Source: an uncultured Acidobacteriota bacterium (GTDB taxonomy: Bacteria; Acidobacteriota; Vicinamibacteria; Vicinamibacterales; UBA8438). Taken from it: 64,000 nucleotides of DNA. Under the pieces are notes generated by a model that worked only from the letters and a program-made list of their open reading frames with translations, had not been told where the DNA came from and searched no databases. Location of the stretch: contig CAJWLU010000012.1 in assembly GCA_913043225.1 (NCBI GenBank), forward strand, positions 45,132 to 109,131. Direction: 5' to 3'. This document shows, piece after piece, positions 35,330 to 45,755 of the stretch (its first letter is position 1; every line of letters begins with the position of its first letter). The position numbers and the translations under genes were made by a program.

Positions 35330-35705
35330 GACGTCTACCTCCGGGAGCGAACGGGGGCCGAGGTGGTATGTGGTGCGTGTGGTCCTTATACCACCACTTG
35401 GCAGACCCTGTGTCCGGCGCACCAGGTGTGGCGCACGCAGTGCTCTTGAAGGGCCCGTTTAGGAGGTTGTCCAGGTCACCGGGAAGGCGAGCAGTGCTTC
35501 GCGATTGATTGGCGGGAGTCCCTGCAGCCTGGTCTGCCCCAGCGGGGTATTTGATGGTCAACTAGTGACATTCTGGTCTCCGCAAGCTTGCCGTTGCTGG
35601 CTCGACGGGGCAGGGGACTCGGTGACAGCCGCCGTGCACGGGGTGACAGTGCTGCCGGTCGTGTGCTCCGCATATGATCAGCAGCAGTCTCGAAGGAGAC
35701 ATGAC

Positions 35706-37658
35706 ATGTGCACAACTCGGTTTGCCTGCGGGACCGTTCTATTCCTGGTACTGGTGGTGGCGTTTGCCACTCTCAGCACCCAAGGCGCCCAGGCGCAGGT
35801 GCCTGACCGCGAATGGCACGCCATCGGTCGAGACGGCGCCAATTCAAAGTACTCGCCCCTCCACCAGATCACGGCTGACAACTTTACCGAACTAGAGATT
35901 GCGTGGACGTGGGACTCGATCTCGCGCGCCGTAACCGCCGAACGGGAAGAATTACGTCCGTCCCCGTTGATGGCTACGCCGCTGATGGCCAACGGCCTCG
36001 TGTATCTCACCAGCGAGTTCGGGCAGGCCGTGGCCCTTGACGCCCGAACCGGCGAACTCGTGTGGTCGTATGATGCCCGCGCGTACGACCTAGTGGACCG
36101 TCCCATCAACATGGGTTGGCGGCACCGCGGGCTGACCTACTGGCAGGACGATGCAAGCGACGACGCCCGCGTCTTCCTAGCCAACCACGACCTGCGGTTG
36201 GTGGCGCTCGACGCGCGCACTGGTGCCGTCTATCCCGACTTCGGTGAGAACGGTCTCGTTGATCTCACACAGGGCCTCGGACGCGACGTGGACGCCGCCA
36301 GGATGACCTACTCGTTCCCCGTGGCGATAGCCGGTGACACCATCATCGTTGGCAGCATTATGCAGGACGGCGCCATCCAGGTGCTGGAGGCACCGCCCGG
36401 ACACGTGCGCGCCTATGATGCGCGGACCGGCGACTTGAAGTGGGTGTTCCGTACCGTCCCGCAGGGCGACGATTTCGGCGTCGATAGTTGGGGCAACGAG
36501 TCGTGGCGCTATAGCGGTCACAGCAACGTCTGGTCCTACATGGCGGTGGATGAAGAACTGGGTTACGTCTATCTGCCCACTGGCACCCCGTCGAACGACT
36601 GGTACGGCGGCATGCGGCCCGGCGACAACCTGTTTGCCGAGAGTGTCATCGCGGTGGACGTCGAGACCGGCCAGCGCGTGTGGCACTTCCAGGCGATTCA
36701 TCACGGCATCTGGGACTGGGATTTTCCGACCGGGCCCAACCTACTGGACGTGACCGTGGACGGTCGGCCCATGAAGATCTTGGCCCAGGTGAGCAAGCAG
36801 GCGTTCACCTATGTGTTCGACCGGGTCACCGGCGAGCCGGTGTGGCCGATCGAAGAGCGACCCGTGCCGGTGGGCGATGTGGAGGGGGAGTGGTATTCGC
36901 CGACCCAGCCATTCCCAACTAAACCGGCGCCGTTCGATCGGCAGGGAATCGCGCTCGATGACATCATCGACTTCACCTCGGAGATTCGGGCCGAGACGCT
37001 CGAGATCATCGATGGTCGAGCACGCCTCGGGCCGTTGTTTTCCACGCCAGTGGTGCGGGGCTCTGGCTTACCCTTCATTCAGGTGCCTGGGCCGGGTGGG
37101 GGCGCCAACTGGCAGGGGGCGGCTGTCGATCCCCAGACCGGACGACTCTTTGTGTCGTCATCCACCATGGGATTCCTGGCCGTTCTGGTCGAGCGAGACG
37201 TTGTCGGCTACTTCACCGACCCCTGGCCGGTGCGCCTGACTGGGCCCCAGGGGTTGCCGCTCTTCAAGCCGCCCTACAAGCGGGTGACCGCCATCGACCT
37301 AAACACCGGCGACCACGCCTGGCAGGTGCCGCACGGTGACGGACCCAGAAATCATCCCCGCCTGGCCCACCTAAACCTCGGTCCCCTCGGTGGCGGTGGC
37401 GGCATCAGCTCCGGTCCGTTGGTCACGCCGACCCTGCTCATCATGAACCACGGCGGCCGAGACTACGGTGACATCAACTCCGGCCTGCGCACTGTCAGCG
37501 CCTACGATAAGGCCACGGGCGTGCACCTCGGATCGGTCGACCTGCCGGTGATGCCGGCAGGTAACCCCGTCACCTACGAGTACGAAGGAAGGCAGTATCT
37601 GGTGATTGCGGGTGGGACCGGCGACGACGCGCAGTTGATGGCGCTGACCCTACCCTAG
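35706..37658 (+). CDS. Periplasmic PQQ-dependent dehydrogenase (glucose/quinate dehydrogenase type)
   Basis: AAGGAG RBS; KYSPLHQI, HHGIWDWD, GGANWQG, PVTYEYEGRQY. Confidence 0.9.
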   Translation: MCTTRFACGTVLFLVLVVAFATLSTQGAQAQVPDREWHAIGRDGANSKYSPLHQITADNFTELEIAWTWDSISRAVTAEREELRPSPLMATPLMANGLVYLTSEFGQAVALDARTGELVWSYDARAYDLVDRPINMGWRHRGLTYWQDDASDDARVFLANHDLRLVALDARTGAVYPDFGENGLVDLTQGLGRDVDAARMTYSFPVAIAGDTIIVGSIMQDGAIQVLEAPPGHVRAYDARTGDLKWVFRTVPQGDDFGVDSWGNESWRYSGHSNVWSYMAVDEELGYVYLPTGTPSNDWYGGMRPGDNLFAESVIAVDVETGQRVWHFQAIHHGIWDWDFPTGPNLLDVTVDGRPMKILAQVSKQAFTYVFDRVTGEPVWPIEERPVPVGDVEGEWYSPTQPFPTKPAPFDRQGIALDDIIDFTSEIRAETLEIIDGRARLGPLFSTPVVRGSGLPFIQVPGPGGGANWQGAAVDPQTGRLFVSSSTMGFLAVLVERDVVGYFTDPWPVRLTGPQGLPLFKPPYKRVTAIDLNTGDHAWQVPHGDGPRNHPRLAHLNLGPLGGGGGISSGPLVTPTLLIMNHGGRDYGDINSGLRTVSAYDKATGVHLGSVDLPVMPAGNPVTYEYEGRQYLVIAGGTGDDAQLMALTLP

Positions 37659-37896: not shown

Positions 37897-38802
37897 CTAC
37901 TGAACCTGCAGGCGCCGGAACAGCTCCTGCACCTCCCCGGTCGAGCTTGCGCCGTTCAGGTCGAACGACCAGTAGCACTCTTCCTTCAGCTGGCTCATCC
38001 TGAGCTGCATCACGCCCTGTGACTTGTGTTCGGCGATGACCCAGTTGCCGATAATCTCGAAGTTCAGCCGGTCGTTGAAACCGAGCGTCTGGGTGCGGTC
38101 GAAGCGGGCTACCGGTCCGCCTGACGCCGTGGTGAGCGGATAGCCGTCGAGACCGCTGAATTCGAACGCCTGGTCGCCTAGCGCGCAGGCGAATCCACCC
38201 AGCACCACTGGCCGGCCTGACGCCGGCAGCTGTTCCGCTGCCTGCAGCGCCAGTATGGTTGCCCCCTTGTGGTGGCCGTGGGTCTCGGTGAACGGGACGG
38301 CGCTGATGATCAGGTCGTAGCCGCCATCTCGGAGGATGCCAGCCAGCCGCTGTCGAACCCAGTCAGCGTCCCAGATGTCGGCCAGCACTGGTGCCACATC
38401 GGTGGTGAACGCGTTGTCCAACTGGTCGAAGAAAAAGTACTTGCTGATGCCTACGATGTCCCCGCCAGCCATTAGTTCCCGCTTTCTGATCGCCGGCAGA
38501 TGTTGGCGTGCGACCTCCTCGTTGGTCAGTTCGACGCCGTAGATCTCCTCGGCGAACGTTGAGTAGCGGTAGCCGCCGCTTCCGTCGGTCACCAGTGCCA
38601 GGTCGACCGTGCCGTCGAGTTGGTGCGTTAGCTGGTAGAGCACGCCGCTGAATGCCGCGTCGTCATCGGGATGGGCGATGACCACCAGGGTCTTAGGACT
38701 GTCCGGTATCCGTCCTTGAGCCGAGGCCTCGGTGGGAAACAGCGATCCCGCGAGTTGGGCGATGGCGAGGACTGAGACGGTGTGGCGGACGCACAGCGGC
38801 AT
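37897..38802 (-). CDS. Secreted PIG-L/LmbE-family deacetylase
   Basis: IAHPDD, TDGSGG, RKRE, HGHH; signal peptide. Confidence 0.85.
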   Translation of the reverse strand: MPLCVRHTVSVLAIAQLAGSLFPTEASAQGRIPDSPKTLVVIAHPDDDAAFSGVLYQLTHQLDGTVDLALVTDGSGGYRYSTFAEEIYGVELTNEEVARQHLPAIRKRELMAGGDIVGISKYFFFDQLDNAFTTDVAPVLADIWDADWVRQRLAGILRDGGYDLIISAVPFTETHGHHKGATILALQAAEQLPASGRPVVLGGFACALGDQAFEFSGLDGYPLTTASGGPVARFDRTQTLGFNDRLNFEIIGNWVIAEHKSQGVMQLRMSQLKEECYWSFDLNGASSTGEVQELFRRLQVQ

Positions 38803-38870: not shown

Positions 38871-39815
38871 CTAGCGTCCGGCCCGCTCCTCGGCACGTGC
38901 TCCGCCCAGCATACTGGTCATGGCGTAGTTGTTCCCCTCGTGGCAGGCGTACTCATACATCGCGTAGTTGTCGTTCCGGGATAGCCCAATTCCGACCTTC
39001 CAGGACGTTACCCAGGTCTCTGGATCGCTGATGGTCGCCTCGTAGTCAAGCGTGTTCTGATCGGTCAGCGTAAACATCTCGACCACCTTTAGGTGCTCTG
39101 TGTGCGCGTGGCCCCGGATGGCGCTCTTGTTGGTGAAGTTGGCCGTTTCTACCAAAAGGGTGTTTCCGTCGAAGTAACCGCGTGATCGTCCCATCCATTG
39201 GCTGATGTCGGACGACGAGAGTGGTCCGTCAGTCAGCGGGATCACGCGAACGTCGTGAATCATCTCGTAGCGCAGGATGACGTAACCAGGAATTTGCAGA
39301 ATTTGATAGGCGTTGTTGTAGAGCGACGGGAACGTTGACGCTGGGATACCGCGCGTGATGCAGCGGACCCACGGATCCAGGTAGGTGTAGTTATCGAACC
39401 CCCGTCGACAGATCTCATCAATTCGGTCGCTGCCCGCGTCGGTGAGGGCGGGGACCCGCCCGTTCTCCGGGTCAGAAATCAGGCTCGGCCGCACGTTACC
39501 GACATCGAGAGAGGTCTCGAACCAATGCTCCGGCGGTCCGATGCCCGCGCCACCTTCGAGTTTCGGAATCGGCTCGTCTGATGGGAAGCACGTGCCGGTA
39601 CCGATAAGCAGCCGTGACGCCCGTTCGCCTGGCGGGGGAGGGGTTTCCAGGCTAAACCCCTCGCCGAGGTCGAAATTGGTCCAGATACCGCGCAAGTCGG
39701 GGTCGCCCCACGGGGTGGTTGATTGAGCGCTTGCAGCCCCGGCCAGGAAAATGAGCGCAAGAAAACAGCCCACTGTTGGTCGGAATGACGCCATAGGAGT
39801 GTTTATTCGTCGCAT
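38871..39815 (-). CDS. Secreted EYACHEGN-family protein, copy 6
   Basis: TPWGDPDLRGIW, VRC, YNNAYQILQ, YEYACHEGNN. Confidence 0.85.
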   Translation of the reverse strand: MRRINTPMASFRPTVGCFLALIFLAGAASAQSTTPWGDPDLRGIWTNFDLGEGFSLETPPPPGERASRLLIGTGTCFPSDEPIPKLEGGAGIGPPEHWFETSLDVGNVRPSLISDPENGRVPALTDAGSDRIDEICRRGFDNYTYLDPWVRCITRGIPASTFPSLYNNAYQILQIPGYVILRYEMIHDVRVIPLTDGPLSSSDISQWMGRSRGYFDGNTLLVETANFTNKSAIRGHAHTEHLKVVEMFTLTDQNTLDYEATISDPETWVTSWKVGIGLSRNDNYAMYEYACHEGNNYAMTSMLGGARAEERAGR

Positions 39816-39906
39816 GATCCGCTGCTCCCTCATTATCTAGCCGAGTTCGGCCTAGTTGATACCGTCGTCCCTAGGAACCTGCCTAATCTATTCGGACCAG
39901 CGATTA

Positions 39907-40041
39907 CTAGAGAACGGCGCTGAACGTGTGAGATAGGCCGAGACGGTGAAGAAATAGAGCATTCTAGACCGAGGAGTAATGCAGGTCACACGTGATTTAG
40001 CGCCGTTCGAATGCAGCGGGATTTTCACCGCGGTCTGCTAG
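39907..40041. mobile_element. MITE/IS-end-like element bounded by CTAG
   Basis: CTAG at both ends; GAACGGCGCT..CGTGTGA is mirrored by TCACACG..AGCGCCGTTC; right end ATTTTCACCGCGGTCTGCTAG. Confidence 0.55.
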
Positions 40042-40916
40042 GGCGTGACGGTGACTTTCAGGTAGCCGTTCGTCCAGCAGCACTGGTTGCCGGACGAGCT
40101 GTCGACCCGGCCGAAGTTGTCGCCGCGTACCCGGAGGACATACTGGCCAGGCTGGTCGAAGGTTGCTTCGGTGGTGCCCATTCCCTGGGTGTCCTCAAGC
40201 GACACTGAGTATTCGCTGAAGATGACGTCGCCAGGACCGGTGTGCTTGAACCAGCTCAGCCGCATCGCCGTGGCGTTGCTCCGTCGTCTGACCGGGAGCA
40301 GTTCTTCGTCGCGCACGCTGTCATCGTTGAGCCAGACCGAGAGCGGCAGTGGCGTGCCCACTGAGGCTGTCATCGGCTCGCCCTCCACCCCTGAGGGGCC
40401 CCGGCCGGTCGGGCCGTCGGCGCTGAAGCTGAGCAGCGGCGGTTGTGACCCCATGGCCATCGGCCAGCGCAGCTGGTAGGCGCCGGTCTGTGCGCTGCCG
40501 GGCACGCTGAAAGTCTGTTCCTGGTTGACCAGGGTCCAGACCACCTCGCCACTGAATCCTGGGGGGATCGTCACGGTAAACACGCCGCGCTCCCGACCCC
40601 GACGTCTACGTGGACGGTCGCTACCATGTCCGGCCGGTGGGAACGAGGTCGGTTGGCCGCCGTCGAACTCGGCCGGCTCGATGAAGTTTGCAGCGCCGTG
40701 GGGAATTTCTACGACTTCGTTCAGGTTCAAATTGGAGTAGCCGAACGAAAGGGTCACCGTACCGTCGTCGTTCCGATACCAACCGTCGAAGAACGGGGCC
40801 ACTCGCAATCCGTTGGGTGGTAGGGGAGTCAGCGGTCGCTGCCGTTGGGCTCCTAACGGGAGAGCGCTGATCAGCAGCACGGTTGCGACGCCGCCCACAA
40901 GCCATCGTCTAGGCAC
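40038..40916 (-). CDS. Secreted protein with a C-terminal PKD/Ig-like domain
   Basis: GGAGG plus GTG; VAPFFDGWY.N.DG...LSFGY.N.N, W.K..GPG.V.F, F.QPGQYVLR, QCCWTNG. Confidence 0.75.
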   Translation of the reverse strand: MPRRWLVGGVATVLLISALPLGAQRQRPLTPLPPNGLRVAPFFDGWYRNDDGTVTLSFGYSNLNLNEVVEIPHGAANFIEPAEFDGGQPTSFPPAGHGSDRPRRRRGRERGVFTVTIPPGFSGEVVWTLVNQEQTFSVPGSAQTGAYQLRWPMAMGSQPPLLSFSADGPTGRGPSGVEGEPMTASVGTPLPLSVWLNDDSVRDEELLPVRRRSNATAMRLSWFKHTGPGDVIFSEYSVSLEDTQGMGTTEATFDQPGQYVLRVRGDNFGRVDSSSGNQCCWTNGYLKVTVTP

Positions 40917-41011
40917 TGGCGTTTCCTCCATCAAGACGCGTCCGAAACGCGAAAGAGCCCCTCGATATCGAGAGGCTCCCTCGCGCCGGCAATCCGTCAA
41001 AGCTTGTCCGG

Positions 41012-42331
41012 CTACGGCTGTTCGGTGGTCTCCAATGCGAGTCGTTCCTCCCGCTCGGCCACCAGTTGCTCGTACCCCTTGTCGTCGAGGTGCGTGACGG
41101 CGATCCAGGCGTGCGACATCTCATCCGCCGTGCGACTGCCACGTCCCACCCACTGAGTCGGATCGGGGTTCTGTTTGTTCCCGGCCGTGTTGTCGTAGTA
41201 GCCGGTGATTACCAGGACGGATCCTGCCGGCACCAGCGGTGCCGAGTCGTCGGCGTAGATGTGGCTGGTGTGCCAGTCGTTCGTCCAATCAGAGACCGAG
41301 CTGACCATCTCCAGATCACCCGTCTTCGGGTCAAAGATCTCAAGCGTCTTACCCACTAGGCGGAAGTGACCGTGCGGCTGGAAGCTGTCGATCCGCACCG
41401 GGGTGTCGAAGGAATGGAAGCCCTGGGTCATCGCCGTGCCGTGCGGCTGGAGCTCGAGCTCGCTACCCTTCATCAGGAGGGAATAGAGTTTGAGGTCCTG
41501 CTGGTATTTGCCCTCGTGGTCTTCCGGATAGAGCCACACTCCCATCTCGATGACGTCGTCCTCGATGACCTCACCGGTGGGGTAGTAGTGGACGTCCCAG
41601 GTGACCATCGAGTCGGCCGGGAGCCGTCGGCACGCGTCCTCGGGAACAACCTCGCCCACTTTGCCCAGCGCGTATTCTGAGAGCCGCTCTACCTCGACCC
41701 ACTCCTCGGTCTCTTCATCGAACCCGAGTAGCCGGCTGTTCGCGTGGTGCGCGGCGGCGCGGCCCTGAGGCGACGGCTTGACGGAGACCGCCTTGATACA
41801 GCGATCTTCGGTCATGCCGGTTGGCGTGATTGGGCGCCACCAAACGTCCTGGCCATCGGCCGCTAGGGTATACGGCTTGGTCTTGATGATCAGATCGGGC
41901 GGACCGAACTGTTCCGCGTAGGCCCACTCGCTGAGGTCTGGGAACGACAGCGGCGGCGGGAGGTCGGCCGGGTCGCCCATCGGTGCGCCAGCGTCCACCC
42001 AACTGGAGATCGCCTCGATCTCGGACAGGCTTAGCCGGAGGTCGTCCTTTAGATTCTGAATGCCGATGTCGCGGTCGTAGCGATAGGGCGGCATCTCGCC
42101 CGTCACCACCCGGTTCTTGATGGACCGGGCCCAGGGCCGCACTTCCTGGTAGGTGGTCAGCGACATCGGGCCGATCGAGCCGGGTCGGTGGCACTGCTGA
42201 CAGTTCTTCTGGAAGATCGGCGCAATGTCTTTGGAGAACGTTACCTCGTGCGCATCGCTGGGCGTCTGAGCGGCCGCGGGCGCACTAAAGGCAAGAAGGA
42301 CTGCGATTCCTAGACTCGAGGCAACACGCAT
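41012..42331 (-). CDS. Cytochrome c / copper type II (PHM-like) monooxygenase fusion B
   Basis: Signal peptide; CQQCH, EMPP; AHHA, VHYY, PHGH, DEMS. Confidence 0.75.
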   Translation of the reverse strand: MRVASSLGIAVLLAFSAPAAAQTPSDAHEVTFSKDIAPIFQKNCQQCHRPGSIGPMSLTTYQEVRPWARSIKNRVVTGEMPPYRYDRDIGIQNLKDDLRLSLSEIEAISSWVDAGAPMGDPADLPPPLSFPDLSEWAYAEQFGPPDLIIKTKPYTLAADGQDVWWRPITPTGMTEDRCIKAVSVKPSPQGRAAAHHANSRLLGFDEETEEWVEVERLSEYALGKVGEVVPEDACRRLPADSMVTWDVHYYPTGEVIEDDVIEMGVWLYPEDHEGKYQQDLKLYSLLMKGSELELQPHGTAMTQGFHSFDTPVRIDSFQPHGHFRLVGKTLEIFDPKTGDLEMVSSVSDWTNDWHTSHIYADDSAPLVPAGSVLVITGYYDNTAGNKQNPDPTQWVGRGSRTADEMSHAWIAVTHLDDKGYEQLVAEREERLALETTEQP

Positions 42332-42402
42332 ACTGACACCTCTCGAAAGCACTCTGGTTGCGACTACGCGCATCCTACTACAGAAACACGCCGGAGAGCC
42401 GC

Positions 42403-43413
42403 CTATGGTTGGCAGGACGAAGCCACCGTCGTCACCGACGTCAGGTTCAAGCGGCTGACCGGTTCGGCCGGGATGAGCAACGCCTTCACGAGTACCGTCT
42501 GGTTCCGCAGTGATGGCAGGTTGAACTCCGACGCGCCGATCAGCTGGAACTGACCCTGGCCACCGGTCGGGCCCTCGTGTGGCTGGTCTGTGGGAGGGCC
42601 GTTGGCGATGCTGGCCACCGGGTCGGTGGCGCCGGTCAACATCCAAGCGCCGGGCCCGGTTTCGACGACGCAGCCGGTTACCGAGACGACCTGGACGTTT
42701 GACGGGGAACTTCGCGGTCGGTCCGACGACGTGGTTGGCGGTGGCGCGGGCGGCCGTGGCTCCGATGTACCTCCGCTTCGCGGAGCATCCTTCTTCCACC
42801 AGGGATTGCCGTAGTTGAGGAACGGGCCGCTGTCCTCGGAGATGGTGGTCTGGACCCGGTAGTTGAAGGGCGAGAGCAGCCGGACGGTGCTTCTGACGCG
42901 GATCGTCTTGCGGTTATGGACGAACGGTGCACCGTCGAACCTGATGGTGAACACGCCGCCTAGGTCGCCAGTGACTGTCCCGGTCTGAAGATACGAGTAG
43001 CCGCGGCTGTCGTTCACCATCCGTGCGATGGTGAGGTTGTCTCTCAGGTAGCCGATGGTCTCTCGAATGGTGACCGGCCCGTCGTCTCCCATCGCCTCGG
43101 TGATTGCCTCGAAATAGCCATCATCAAGGGCCTTGAACTCGGTGGTGCCGTCCAGGCTGCCGGCTGGGCCAAGCGCGCTGTCAGGATAATCCCAGGAAAA
43201 CGCCCACCTGCCGCTGAAGTAGCGTGCGAAATCGAGTTGAGGCACATCGTCATCCGGCCTGGTCGGCCGGTCGAGGTTCGGCATCTGGCTGGTCGGCCGA
43301 TCAGAGGTCGGAGGCGCTTGTTCTGGGACCTGACCTTGAATGACAGCGTCCGAGCACGCGATCGCAACAAGGGTGAGGCCACAGCCCGCCGACTGTCGCC
43401 ACCTGCTTCGCAT
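42403..43413 (-). CDS. Secreted two-domain hypothetical protein
   Basis: Beta-barrel-like domain (YFSGRW...YGNPWW), Pro/Ser linker, small domain VTGC...SSC. Confidence 0.7.
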   Translation of the reverse strand: MRSRWRQSAGCGLTLVAIACSDAVIQGQVPEQAPPTSDRPTSQMPNLDRPTRPDDDVPQLDFARYFSGRWAFSWDYPDSALGPAGSLDGTTEFKALDDGYFEAITEAMGDDGPVTIRETIGYLRDNLTIARMVNDSRGYSYLQTGTVTGDLGGVFTIRFDGAPFVHNRKTIRVRSTVRLLSPFNYRVQTTISEDSGPFLNYGNPWWKKDAPRSGGTSEPRPPAPPPTTSSDRPRSSPSNVQVVSVTGCVVETGPGAWMLTGATDPVASIANGPPTDQPHEGPTGGQGQFQLIGASEFNLPSLRNQTVLVKALLIPAEPVSRLNLTSVTTVASSCQP

Positions 43414-43424
43414 GATCCGTAGCG

Positions 43425-44843
43425 CTACTGGTCCTGCGACGTTGTTGCAGGCACCTTGGTGAGATCCTGGCTATCCACCGAGAACTGGATGGTCGGTTGA
43501 TACATCTCGTCCCAGCTTTGCTCCGACCAGTAGACCGGCTTCTCAGGCGCGGGGTTCCAGCGGTTGCCGGGCGAGTTGTCGTAGATGGCCACGTTGGTGA
43601 TCTTGCTGCCGGCGGGCACCTTCAGCGGCATTTCCAGTTCGTACTGAATCTGCCAATTGAAGTCGTATTCCGGTACATCGAGGATCACTTCCTCGCTTCC
43701 GTCTGGATAGGTTACCCACCACTTCATGCTCTTGCCGCGCAGGTGCATGTGCGGTGTTAGCGAGTAGACCGTGATCGGCTCGTTGACGGGCGTGATCCCC
43801 ATCACCCGATGTGCCTCTTCGTAGGGCGGAATCAATGGCCTCGCGGGACTGCGCCGACTGTTGACGGCGTAGCGCAGTTCCTGGCCTGACGAGAAGTACA
43901 GCCCCCGGCCGCCGCTCTTCGGCACCGGGGAACCGGCCTGCAGATTCAGCACCTCGTGTGTCACTGGGTTCTTGGCGAACCACAAGCCGAGCCGGCTGCG
44001 GTCTGTTTCGACCTGGCCGGTCGGGTTGTAGTGCAACACCCAGCGGATGTACTTCCCGGCCGGAATCCGCTTGGCGAATCCGTCGGGGTGTGATTCGTAG
44101 CCGCGACCAGGCACGTAAGACAGCAGTTTGTTCGCGCCCGCTAGCGGGTCGTCGTTCCCTGAACTGGCAGCCCGGCCCATGGGCTGGCTCGGAGGTACCT
44201 GGCTGCCGTCCTCGTCGTGCAGATACCCGTCAGTCACGGAGTAGCCCTCCGGAATGTCGACAATGTAGGCGCCCGAGTGATGCACCACCGCATGGTTCTC
44301 GGGACGTAGTTCCAGGCCGGAGGCCCACCGGTCTTGGGCGAAGGGAATCGGCTGATAGAAGTAGAGGTAGGGTTCGGCGCCGTCCGGCTTGATCGTCCAT
44401 TCGACGGGCTGCTCGAAGATGTAGTCCGGTTCACCTAGCTGCCAGCCGGTGGTGAAGGTTGGCGGCTCCGGCAGGTCGGCATCATTACCTGGCGGTGCGC
44501 CGCCTTCGACCCACGCCACGATGGTGTCGATCTCGTCCTGTATGAGTCGGTTGTCGTTCCGCATCTTCATGCTGGTTGGAGTCGCGCCCCACGGCGGCAT
44601 CTCGCCCGAGACAACCCGGGCCTGGATCGACCGTGCCCATGGACGCGTGCTCTTGTAGTCCAAGAACGACATCGGACCAATTTCTCCCTGGCGATGGCAT
44701 CTGACGCACTTCTGGTACAGGATGGGTGCGACGTCCTTGGCAAACGTCGGCGCGGCGCCGGGCGCTTCGTTGGCATGTGCGCCTCCAGCCGCCGGTGCTG
44801 TCAGAGTAACCGCTACCGCTAGTATTGAGAGAGGACGCTGCAT
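43425..44843 (-). CDS. Cytochrome c / copper type II (PHM-like) monooxygenase fusion A
   Basis: AAGGAG RBS; CVRCH, EMPPW; VVHHS, LHYN, PHMHLRGK, YDFNWQ, WDEM. Confidence 0.8.
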   Translation of the reverse strand: MQRPLSILAVAVTLTAPAAGGAHANEAPGAAPTFAKDVAPILYQKCVRCHRQGEIGPMSFLDYKSTRPWARSIQARVVSGEMPPWGATPTSMKMRNDNRLIQDEIDTIVAWVEGGAPPGNDADLPEPPTFTTGWQLGEPDYIFEQPVEWTIKPDGAEPYLYFYQPIPFAQDRWASGLELRPENHAVVHHSGAYIVDIPEGYSVTDGYLHDEDGSQVPPSQPMGRAASSGNDDPLAGANKLLSYVPGRGYESHPDGFAKRIPAGKYIRWVLHYNPTGQVETDRSRLGLWFAKNPVTHEVLNLQAGSPVPKSGGRGLYFSSGQELRYAVNSRRSPARPLIPPYEEAHRVMGITPVNEPITVYSLTPHMHLRGKSMKWWVTYPDGSEEVILDVPEYDFNWQIQYELEMPLKVPAGSKITNVAIYDNSPGNRWNPAPEKPVYWSEQSWDEMYQPTIQFSVDSQDLTKVPATTSQDQ

Positions 44844-45007
44844 TCCTATCTCCTTCAAGGGTTATATTTGCTATTAGACTCGCCTTGAGGCGCTGGGGCA
44901 ACTTCTGTCTTATCGTACCTTTTCGAGAAGCGCTGAAAACCCAAGTACAGATTGCCGAAGCTGAACGCCTGCTCGTGGAGAAGACGAGGCGTACCCGCTA
45001 TTCCGCC

Positions 45008-45110
45008 ATGAGATACACGCAACTCTTTCTCTCTGCTCTCCTCGTGTGCTCCTGTGCGCCTGGGCCCCAGAGCACGGATTGGTCCACCTATCTGGGCGAT
45101 CCAGGGATGA
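45008..45110 (+). pseudogene. N-terminal stub of a lipoprotein PQQ dehydrogenase
   Basis: MRYTQLFLSALLVCSC...DWSTYLGDPG, then unrelated sequence. Confidence 0.5.
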
Positions 45111-45667
45111 CCTGGCCGCCGGTGGTGGTGACCAGTTCGGCCCTGCCTCAAAGAGCGGGAAAGTATTGCTCGACAACGTGAATTGTTCATTGTCGTAGGT
45201 CACCGCTTGCAAGCCCAAGAGGTCACTTCCCGTCACCATTAGCAGGGTGATGTACCCGCACAGGGCGGTTGCTAGCACCTGTAGCCCCAGGCATGCCTTG
45301 TCGATCGACCCTTGGGTCAGTGCACCGGCCTGCGCAACGCGAAATCCGGAGAAGGTCAGGACGCCAACAAATACAGCGCCCAACGTCGTCAGCAGGTTGG
45401 CTTCCAGGCCACGAGCGATTCGTCCGATAGTTCCCAGCGGAACGGCGAGCATGAAGTTGCTCAGCAGTGCGATCACGACAATGAGGCCGATACGCTTGTG
45501 TAGAGCAGTGCCCTTGGTTTTGGCAAGTACGAAACCGCCGCCGACGAGTGTGATCAGTCCCAGGGCGATGTGGACCTGGACGAGGAGCCCCAACAGACCG
45601 GCGTAGCCAAGTTCCTGCTGGTACGAGACGTCGATGATTTTCTCGATAAGCTCCGCGGCTTGAGCAG
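45110..45667 (-). pseudogene. Truncated DUF2306-like membrane protein
   Basis: HIALG...KG.ALHKRIG and several TM helices; frame open up to the tRNA CCA end; C-terminus degenerates. Confidence 0.55.
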
Positions 45668-45755
45668 TGGTGCGGAAGGGGGGACTTGAACCCCCATGGG
45701 ACTAAGTCCCACTGGCTCCTGAAGCCAGCGCGTCTGCCAATTCCGCCACTTCCGC
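45668..45755 (-). tRNA. tRNA-Leu(CAG)
   Basis: Acceptor GCGGAAG/CTTCCGC-ACCA, anticodon arm CTGGC-TTCAGGA-GCCAG, long variable arm TGGGACTTAGTCCCA, T loop TTCAAGT. Confidence 0.97.

Follow-up and report, generated by a model that had tools for sequence, protein, structure and literature searches.

Two haem-fused proteins with a PHM/DBM-like two-copper core, each paired with a partner gene, at a locus of an uncultured Acidobacteriota bacterium

The window analysed here is a stretch of 64,000 nucleotides from an uncultured Acidobacteriota bacterium (contig CAJWLU010000012.1, positions 45,132 to 109,131), and the locus of interest is a cluster of six minus-strand genes, A, P1, B, P2, EYACHEGN (named after a motif) and PIG-L, separated by gaps of 11, 71, 80, 204 and 68 nt (Table 1). 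The gene order and strand and the EYACHEGN motif were found as given in a preliminary description of the sequence, and the deacetylase carries a PIG-L domain. In that description, the two large proteins were taken for haem c-fused copper monooxygenases resembling those acting on peptidylglycine (PHM) and dopamine (DBM or DBH). A and B are indeed PHM/DBM-fold enzymes fused to a cytochrome c domain, which confirms that observation. Judged by gene order in related loci, the cluster is two independent two-gene modules, A+P1 and B+P2; the multi-component system of four to six genes proposed before was not borne out, as the two pairs recur separately. The start of B was set at its MRVASS signal peptide, while the listed open reading frame (ORF) runs further upstream, into P1.

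Table 1. Features of the locus, with coordinates in the window.
Feature	Coordinates	Strand	Length (aa)	Description
A	43425-44843	minus	472	Predicted signal peptide, mono-haem cytochrome c domain and PHM/DBM-like two-copper core; CxxCH 46-50, MPP 82-84, HH 188-189, H271, HxH 365-367, M447
P1	42403-43413	minus	336	Two-domain partner of A; N-terminal hydrophobic segment ending in Cys (possible lipoprotein signal), DUF1579-like domain ~45-215, Pro-rich linker, small C-terminal domain ~232-336
B	41012-42331	minus	439	Predicted signal peptide, mono-haem cytochrome c domain, PHM/DBM-like two-copper core and C-terminal helix; C42, C45, H46, M78, H193, H194, H246, H318, H320, M403 (numbered from V3)
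P2	40038-40931	minus	297	Partner of B; predicted signal peptide, two Ig-like beta-sandwich domains, QCCWTN motif (C284-C285)
EYACHEGN gene	38871-39833	minus		Neighbour, not a demonstrated part of the modules
PIG-L deacetylase gene	37897-38802	minus		Secreted; neighbour, linked to the modules in no related locus examined
PQQ propeller dehydrogenase gene	35505-37658	plus		PF01011, E 1e-175; convergent with the six-gene cluster, at its lower-coordinate side
tRNA-Leu	45668-45755			Above the cluster (higher coordinates)

A and B share 30% identity (E 2e-50), in keeping with their earlier designation as two divergent paralogues. Both begin with a hydrophobic segment that has an AxA-type site at its end; these features, read from the sequence by eye and not from a predictor, agree with the signal peptides described before. 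The other motifs noted earlier, CxxCH...MPP followed by HH, HY, HxH and EM, are all present, with variation in distant members of the family confined to the Y and the E. Among 21 relatives of A, the invariant residues include C46, C49, H50, M82-P83-P84, H188-H189, H271-Y272, H365, H367 and E446-M447. A set of 32 more diverse relatives, with 29-51% identity to B, was found to be invariant both on the haem side (C42, C45, H46, M78, P79 and P80) and on the copper side (H193, H194, H246, H318, H320 and M403). In the alignments, this conservation of the ligands and of the haem motif is far beyond chance. The combination of CxxCH for haem attachment and MPP for the distal Met ligand, by which class I c-type cytochromes are recognised, occurs in both proteins and points to a haem domain of this class; the matches of A and B to the Pfam Cytochrome_CBB3 family lie below the cut-off (21.2 and 23.2 bits, respectively, versus 27).

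The fold was examined with an AlphaFold2 model of B, which has a predicted local distance difference test score (pLDDT) of 89.3 and a predicted template modelling score (pTM) of 0.86. The best 31 matches of this model in a Foldseek search of the PDB were all human DBH or rat PHM structures (E 5e-12 to 1e-7). With VIA-align the model superposed on DBH 4zel with Z 21.8 (273 aligned residues) and on PHM 6ala with Z 20.4 (249 aligned residues), both with a root-mean-square deviation of 3.0 Å, and the next unrelated fold, PNGase F, was found at Z 8.8. The superposition on PHM that had been suggested as a check thus favours the predicted fold. The model fits the 'closed' forms (DBH 4zel and the H108A-citrate form of PHM, 6ala) better than open PHM, for which Z was 15.8-18.5; 6ALA is given as a closed conformer in the accessible part of a review of these enzymes (PMC12164859).

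Profile comparison led to the same two families. A diverse family profile (A2) matched DBH at E 1.1e-8 and PHM at E 2.3e-6 in the PDB, whereas PHM was not recovered from the PDB with single sequences or with the narrow A1 profile. In the A2 alignment, HH of the family falls on VHHM of PHM, the next H on VHY and HxH on HTH, likewise for the DBH motifs, and (D/E)M is placed on DEM of PHM through a weak second stretch of 0.7 bits. The copper ligands of PHM are H107, H108 and H172 for CuH and H242, H244 and M314 for CuM (PMC12164859, in the part accessible), and the accessible part of another paper describes PHM as a double jelly-roll protein widespread in eukaryotes (PMC8812541). Each motif of the family profile aligns onto the ligands of PHM and DBH, which supports the assignment of three His to a putative CuH site and of two His and one Met to a putative CuM site in the preliminary description. 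Three features of PHM, DBM and TBM, namely the double jelly-roll core, CuH with HH and a third His, and CuM with HxH and Met, are predicted for A and B, the fold being taken from the model of B.

The likeness to PHM (1phm, 1opm, 1sdw and 6ala) extends to the double jelly-roll fold, with Z of 18-20, and to the same ligands at aligned positions. The differences are that A and B are bacterial and predicted to be periplasmic, carry an N-terminal fused haem c, share only ~12-14% identity with PHM, lie below the Pfam cut-offs and have a dedicated partner protein; the PHM residues for the peptide carboxylate are not kept, and the window holds neither a PAL domain in these proteins nor an adjacent PAL-like gene. 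DBH (4zel), together with tyramine beta-monooxygenase, is the best match both in structure (Z 21.8) and by profile (E 1.1e-8), with the same ligand set. Unlike DBH, A and B gave no Pfam match to the DOMON domain and have a cytochrome c domain at the N-terminus instead; they also lack the DBH-type C-terminal dimerisation domain and have a separate Ig-like (immunoglobulin-like) or DUF1579-like partner.

The PHM residues N316 and Y318, which we take to be substrate contacts, correspond to Q and T in A and to H and W in B. The position of R240, which binds the substrate carboxylate in PHM (PMC12164859, in the part accessible), lies two residues ahead of HxH and is occupied by T in A and Q in B. 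All three positions vary among the 19 paralogues of the genome that is described below. As these peptide-binding residues are not kept, A and B are, on the alignment, PHM-like but not peptidylglycine monooxygenases, i.e., neither is a PEPTIDYLGLYCINE enzyme, and peptidyl-glycine is an unlikely substrate. By analogy, a small molecule such as those used by DBH and tyramine beta-monooxygenase is the likelier substrate, and the spread of pocket residues among the paralogues suggests many different small substrates.

The family was found to be large. At least 5081 proteins were matched at E 0.001 among 8000 candidates scored, and the best 120 of them carry the names 'cytochrome c', 'mono/diheme cytochrome c family protein' or 'hypothetical', with a precomputed PF03712 match in 8 of the 120. 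Cluster representatives number 12,800 at E 0.001 and 903 at E 1e-30, and many of the weaker ones probably share the haem domain only. Within a set of 32 family members, PF03712 was matched by 14 and PF01082 by one at E <= 0.01.

Nineteen full-length paralogues of the enzymes were found in the genome from which the window derives (G000; 3.85 Mb in 55 contigs, 96% complete). Eighteen of them have an intact haem motif and the full set of six copper ligands. The remaining one, on contig C4 (51154-52368), keeps CxxCH and MPP but only one of the six copper ligand residues (with RH, L, E.D, L at these positions), and is possibly a haem-only derivative. Eight further weak matches in this genome cover the haem module only, at the head of proteins of 823-1151 aa. 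In a sample of the phylum, 45 of 201 genomes (a tally that includes G024, flagged as unpublished) have an enzyme match at E 1e-30 or better, and the related contigs are labelled Acidobacteriota, mostly Vicinamibacterales and Blastocatellia. Near-identical DNA was observed in marine or seawater metagenome runs, with twelve rows holding at least half of the sampled words; two of these rows may be the source of the window DNA itself.

P1, the partner of A, had been described as a two-domain protein. This was upheld, with the addition that most related loci encode the two halves as separate genes; the fused form was seen in the window, in locus L038 and in close database relatives. With DUF1579 (PF07617) the N-terminal domain of the window copy gives only a match below the cut-off (E 0.036); among its relatives 11 of 21 match, the best at E 4.5e-8, and we regard the domain as a divergent, DUF1579-like one from these profile matches. 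It has no invariant His, Cys or Met among its relatives. The C-terminal domain resembles only unnamed Acidobacteriota proteins of ~106 aa (Atlas clusters named 'hypothetical') and occurs elsewhere as a separate gene of ~100 aa. A relationship between this domain and P2 was rejected (hhalign probability 0.2%), and the only PDB match of the A4 profile was a spurious repeat protein. A literature search, in which most subscription journals were not covered, found no description of DUF1579.

A P1 piece lies within 4 kb of the enzyme gene in 34 of the 63 loci with relatives of A (33 by script and the fused copy in L038). For the 19 loci with at least 51% identity to A, the piece is found within 400 bp in 18 (17 by script and L038), and the single locus that has none is truncated by the end of its contig. 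Nine loci from the 51-57% identity group (L007, L008, L010, L012, L013, L014, L016, L024 and L049) also have genes for an NHL six-blade propeller and a HupE/UreJ_2 membrane protein in the cassette, and in several of the NHL-bearing loci these two genes sit between the DUF1579-like gene and the gene for the small C-terminal domain.

The family of P2, the partner of B, counts 1157 proteins at E 0.001; the best 120 of these are all hypothetical proteins without a Pfam domain. This family has no invariant His, Cys or Met, its invariant aromatic residues being F97, W132, W227, F258 and Y264. Because neither P2 nor the N-terminal domain of P1 has an invariant His, Cys or Met, both partners are, judged from their alignments, non-redox proteins. 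The model of P2 (pLDDT 77.5) shows two Ig-like sandwiches with no recognisable active site, and fold searches returned generic Ig-like matches only (best Z 10.2, all others at most 8.4). P2 had been described as a PKD-domain protein ending in a vicinal CC. The cysteine pair is present as C284-C285, thirteen residues ahead of the C-terminus and inside the conserved QCCWTN motif, whereas the PKD label is only approximate: the C-terminal domain has no Pfam PKD match, and the PKD-like domain of ColH (Z 7.5) is one among many equal Ig-like matches.

B-type enzymes are paired with P2. In the window genome, each of the 13 P2-like genes has an enzyme gene no more than 500 bp away, and of the 19 enzyme genes 13 have a P2-like neighbour, compared with 0.2 of 19 expected at random; none of 500 shuffles reached the observed 13. 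Strong full-length P2 matches were found in 16 of the 201 genomes of the phylum sample; a wider tally of 28 genomes includes weak PKD-like repeat matches in giant proteins as well as the unpublished genomes G152 and G024. At the true P2 loci (18 from 17 other genomes and two from the window genome), 20 out of 20 have an enzyme gene adjacent on the same strand, in either order. No adjacent enzyme gene was observed at the 10 weak, repeat-only loci, which include L113 and L116 of unpublished genomes. When the 19 paralogues were placed in a maximum-likelihood tree, a single split (support 100/99) united the 13 enzymes linked to P2, and inside it the five enzymes that have a QCCWTN-type partner form a subclade (support 92/98). 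Seven of the best 150 representatives of B also match the P2 profile, and three of these seven, all metagenome proteins, are full-length, single-ORF fusions with no internal signal peptide, one with the partner first (P0123) and two with the enzyme first (P0135 and P0138).

Prediction of a complex between B and P2, another check that had been proposed, gave an interface score (ipSAE) of 0.66 (runs 0.64, 0.66 and 0.68), compared with 0.00 for the best of three controls, and so favours a modelled interaction. In calibration, 116 of 157 solved complexes attained the mark applied to this score, as did 2 of 215 mismatched pairs; for the custom alignments used here these counts hold only roughly. 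The runs share at least 70% of their contacts, with a pLDDT of at least 82 for the partner. The confident contacts in the model lie on B at residues 152, 161-165, 245, 247, 287-294, 321 and 387-401, which flank H246, H320 and M403, and on P2 at 45-50 (the conserved PFFDGW segment), 141-152, 158-160 and 276-283, just ahead of C284-C285. Since the contacts on B flank the copper ligands, P2 is modelled across the cleft where PHM binds its substrate. Most likely, P2 forms a 1:1 complex with B in which, according to the model, it spans the interdomain cleft beside both copper sites.

In the animal PHM/DBM enzymes the electrons come from ascorbate, and by analogy the haem c domain of A and B would be the natural electron entry in its place; the ascorbate dependence of DBH is presumably replaced in the same manner. 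We propose that a periplasmic one-electron carrier reduces the N-terminal, class I-type (His/Met) haem, which would hand over two electrons, one at a time, to the three-His CuH site in the role that ascorbate has in PHM. CuH would pass the electrons on to CuM (His-His-Met), and CuM would bind O2 and hydroxylate a C-H bond of the substrate, which would not be peptidyl-glycine and is probably a small organic molecule. P2 would act as a lid or specificity subunit for B, and P1 might do so for A by analogy. The reading as a whole, namely two modules that each consist of a haem-fused PHM/DBM-fold enzyme and a non-redox beta-protein partner, a DUF1579-like barrel with a small domain for A and a tandem Ig-like protein for B, and that work by this mechanism, is given a probability of about 0.6; it builds on the fold, the conserved ligands, the haem motif and the apparent export signals, on the two gene pairings and the natural fusions, and on the interface in the model.

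Several observations weigh against this reading. A matches PF03712 (Cu2_monoox_C) at 18.8 bits only, below the cut-off of 23, B has no Pfam copper monooxygenase match at all, and PF01082 is absent from both. The equivalence of the copper sites is drawn from alignment and superposition, and the occupancy by haem and copper, the direction of electron flow, the monooxygenase chemistry and the class of substrate are inferred. The score of the B-P2 complex is the confidence of the model itself and not a measurement. The modelled interface is also not more conserved than the remainder of the proteins, either on the enzyme side (mean entropy 1.69 versus 1.72, with 752 of 2000 random subsets as low) or on the P2 side (1.38 versus 1.54, with 254 of 2000 as low). 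For A and P1, an interaction is suggested by synteny only. Finally, the paralogue on contig C4 has lost its copper ligands, so not all copies need be oxygenases.

Four other explanations were weighed. Bacterial peptide amidation, in which the enzymes would hydroxylate a C-terminal glycine like PHM and a PAL-like lyase located elsewhere would complete the reaction, is the least probable of them. It could draw on the NHL gene that adjoins the cassette in 9 of the 63 related A-type loci, as one of these proteins matches PAL 3fvz at E 5e-24. Generic NHL domains (Thin and TRIM71) match that protein better than PAL does, a search of the window's own contig (C12) for NHL, the PAL-like six-blade propeller, gave no match, and the positions of R240, N316 and Y318 hold other residues in A (T, Q, T) and B (Q, H, W) and are variable in the paralogues; the NHL/PAL-like pattern of those cassettes does not apply to the window locus. 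We also find it highly doubtful that A, P1, B, P2, EYACHEGN and the deacetylase are one co-evolving system acting on one substrate, even though the six genes are co-directional with short gaps and a scan of the minus strand of the cluster found no terminator-like site. Only one related locus (L018) also places P2, B, P1 pieces and A side by side, and there the arrangement is divergent and B is in pieces. Within the stretches examined, A+P1 is absent from the 12-15 kb around the closest orthologues of B+P2 (85, 76 and 73% identity), and the closest A+P1 loci (69-74% identity) have no B+P2 alongside. There is no enrichment of EYACHEGN genes around the enzymes (6 of 19, versus 3.7 +/- 1.7 expected; 73 of 500 shuffles were as high) and, the window's own copy aside, the 63 + 30 related loci examined contain no PIG-L gene, so the synteny of a four to six gene cassette, proposed as a check of the larger system, did not extend to these two genes. 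A promoter-like site between P2 and the EYACHEGN gene also separates the two, weakly (one found, 1.9 expected).

It is likewise improbable, though less so than these two, that P2 is not a subunit but a protein substrate, with the enzyme as a dedicated maturase that would hydroxylate or cross-link a residue of P2, for example near QCCWTN or FDGW, in the way LodB acts on LodA and MauG on methylamine dehydrogenase. The strict 1:1 pairing of the genes would suit such a role, as would the docking, where P2 loops 45-50, 148-152 and 276-283 are placed into the cleft between the copper sites, and the association of CC-type partners with one enzyme subclade. The CC motif is, however, found in only 5 of the 13 partners of the window genome, no Cys, His or Met is invariant, the five invariant aromatics lie outside the interface, and P2 consists of two plain Ig-like sandwiches without a recognisable active site; the stable fusions in both orders also suit a domain partner better than a released product. 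The alternative to which we give most weight, while still considering it unlikely, is that the proteins are not oxygenases but an electron-transfer or oxidase/reductase module (for detoxification of O2 or reactive oxygen species, or with another acceptor), or that their copper sites are structural. In favour of this, the contig C4 paralogue keeps the haem only, and the same haem module heads other large periplasmic proteins, as in the eight weaker matches that cover the cytochrome part only. What speaks for oxygenases is the six-residue ligand set of a noncoupled two-copper site, which includes the CuM-specific Met and is invariant in relatives at ~30% identity, and the presence of 19 divergent copies with variable pocket positions, which fit substrate diversification.

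A precedent for the proposed wiring of the haem-fused PHM/DBM-fold enzymes is found in the type II quinohaemoprotein alcohol dehydrogenases, in which a propeller with pyrroloquinoline quinone (PQQ) carries a fused cytochrome c domain. In both cases a periplasmic catalytic domain would be connected to the respiratory electron pool by a fused mono-haem cytochrome c. The catalytic fold and cofactor of these dehydrogenases are unrelated to those of A and B, and their electrons leave the substrate for the haem, whereas an inward flow is proposed here.

To our knowledge, work on PHM/DBM chemistry has until now dealt with eukaryotic enzymes that are fed by ascorbate, and the crossing of electrons from CuH to CuM is a long-standing question there. 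A natural PHM-like enzyme with a built-in haem donor would offer a spectroscopically visible and stoichiometric injection of electrons by which the CuH-CuM transfer could be watched. Nothing like the obligate Ig-like partner, which the model predicts as a cap over the active site, is known from the PHM/DBM family. In the literature search, which did not cover most subscription journals, no paper turned up on a PHM/DBM homologue that is haem-fused or bacterial, and in the accessible part of the PHM/DBM review of 2025 (PMC12164859) the string 'prokaryot' has no mention and 'bacteria' a single, unrelated one. The locus points to a large and unstudied class of bacterial oxygenases that would do without vitamin C, and the 19 copies in a marine genome of 3.85 Mb suggest a broad, unexplored extracytoplasmic oxygenase set with possible roles in carbon turnover and biocatalysis. 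More tentatively, and with the odds rather against it, haem-wired two-copper monooxygenases with their own lid subunits might be a large, unrecognised class of periplasmic C-H hydroxylases that fill the role of P450 or flavin monooxygenases in marine and soil Acidobacteriota, their electrons coming from a periplasmic cytochrome or cupredoxin pool reduced by the ~75 PQQ dehydrogenases of the genome. If this were true, refractory organic matter would undergo coupled hydroxylation and alcohol oxidation outside the cytoplasm, with no need for NAD(P)H or ascorbate.

Among the neighbouring genes, the deacetylase matches PIG-L (PF02585) at E 8.6e-13, with 49.4 bits against a cut-off of 28.2, and an NCBIfam search gave nothing useful for five of the six proteins of the cluster. 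The EYACHEGN family, for which the Atlas yielded only unnamed 'hypothetical' clusters, has at least 81 paralogues in the window genome. PQQ dehydrogenase genes are not enriched near the enzymes (5 of 19, versus 3.5 +/- 1.6 expected). Of 81 EYACHEGN genes, 17 have a PQQ gene no more than 500 bp away, compared with 5.8 +/- 2.3 expected and with none of 500 shuffles as high, and from this proximity in the genome the family may be a partner of the PQQ dehydrogenases. Directly upstream of A, a minus-strand ORF of 227 aa (44910-45593) was observed whose gene model is uncertain; its first half resembles a multi-pass membrane protein, its second half appears to be in a wrong frame, and it has no Pfam match.

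Contigs from four RNA libraries of four studies, with 95-99% identity, cover parts of A, P1, B, P2 and the EYACHEGN gene, B having the most, and one of 233 nt runs across the A/P1 junction, from A (176 nt) into P1 (46 nt). None of the contigs of the four runs joins P1 to B or B to P2, and none lies on PIG-L, although contigs cannot show absence or transcript boundaries. They are only a weak hint of expression, because DNA may be present in such libraries and a contig is not a defined transcript. At position 40945, between B and P2, contigs of two RNA-library runs (X14 and X18) break off and continue with the same unrelated sequence, which could reflect strain variation, a chimera or another downstream arrangement in relatives.

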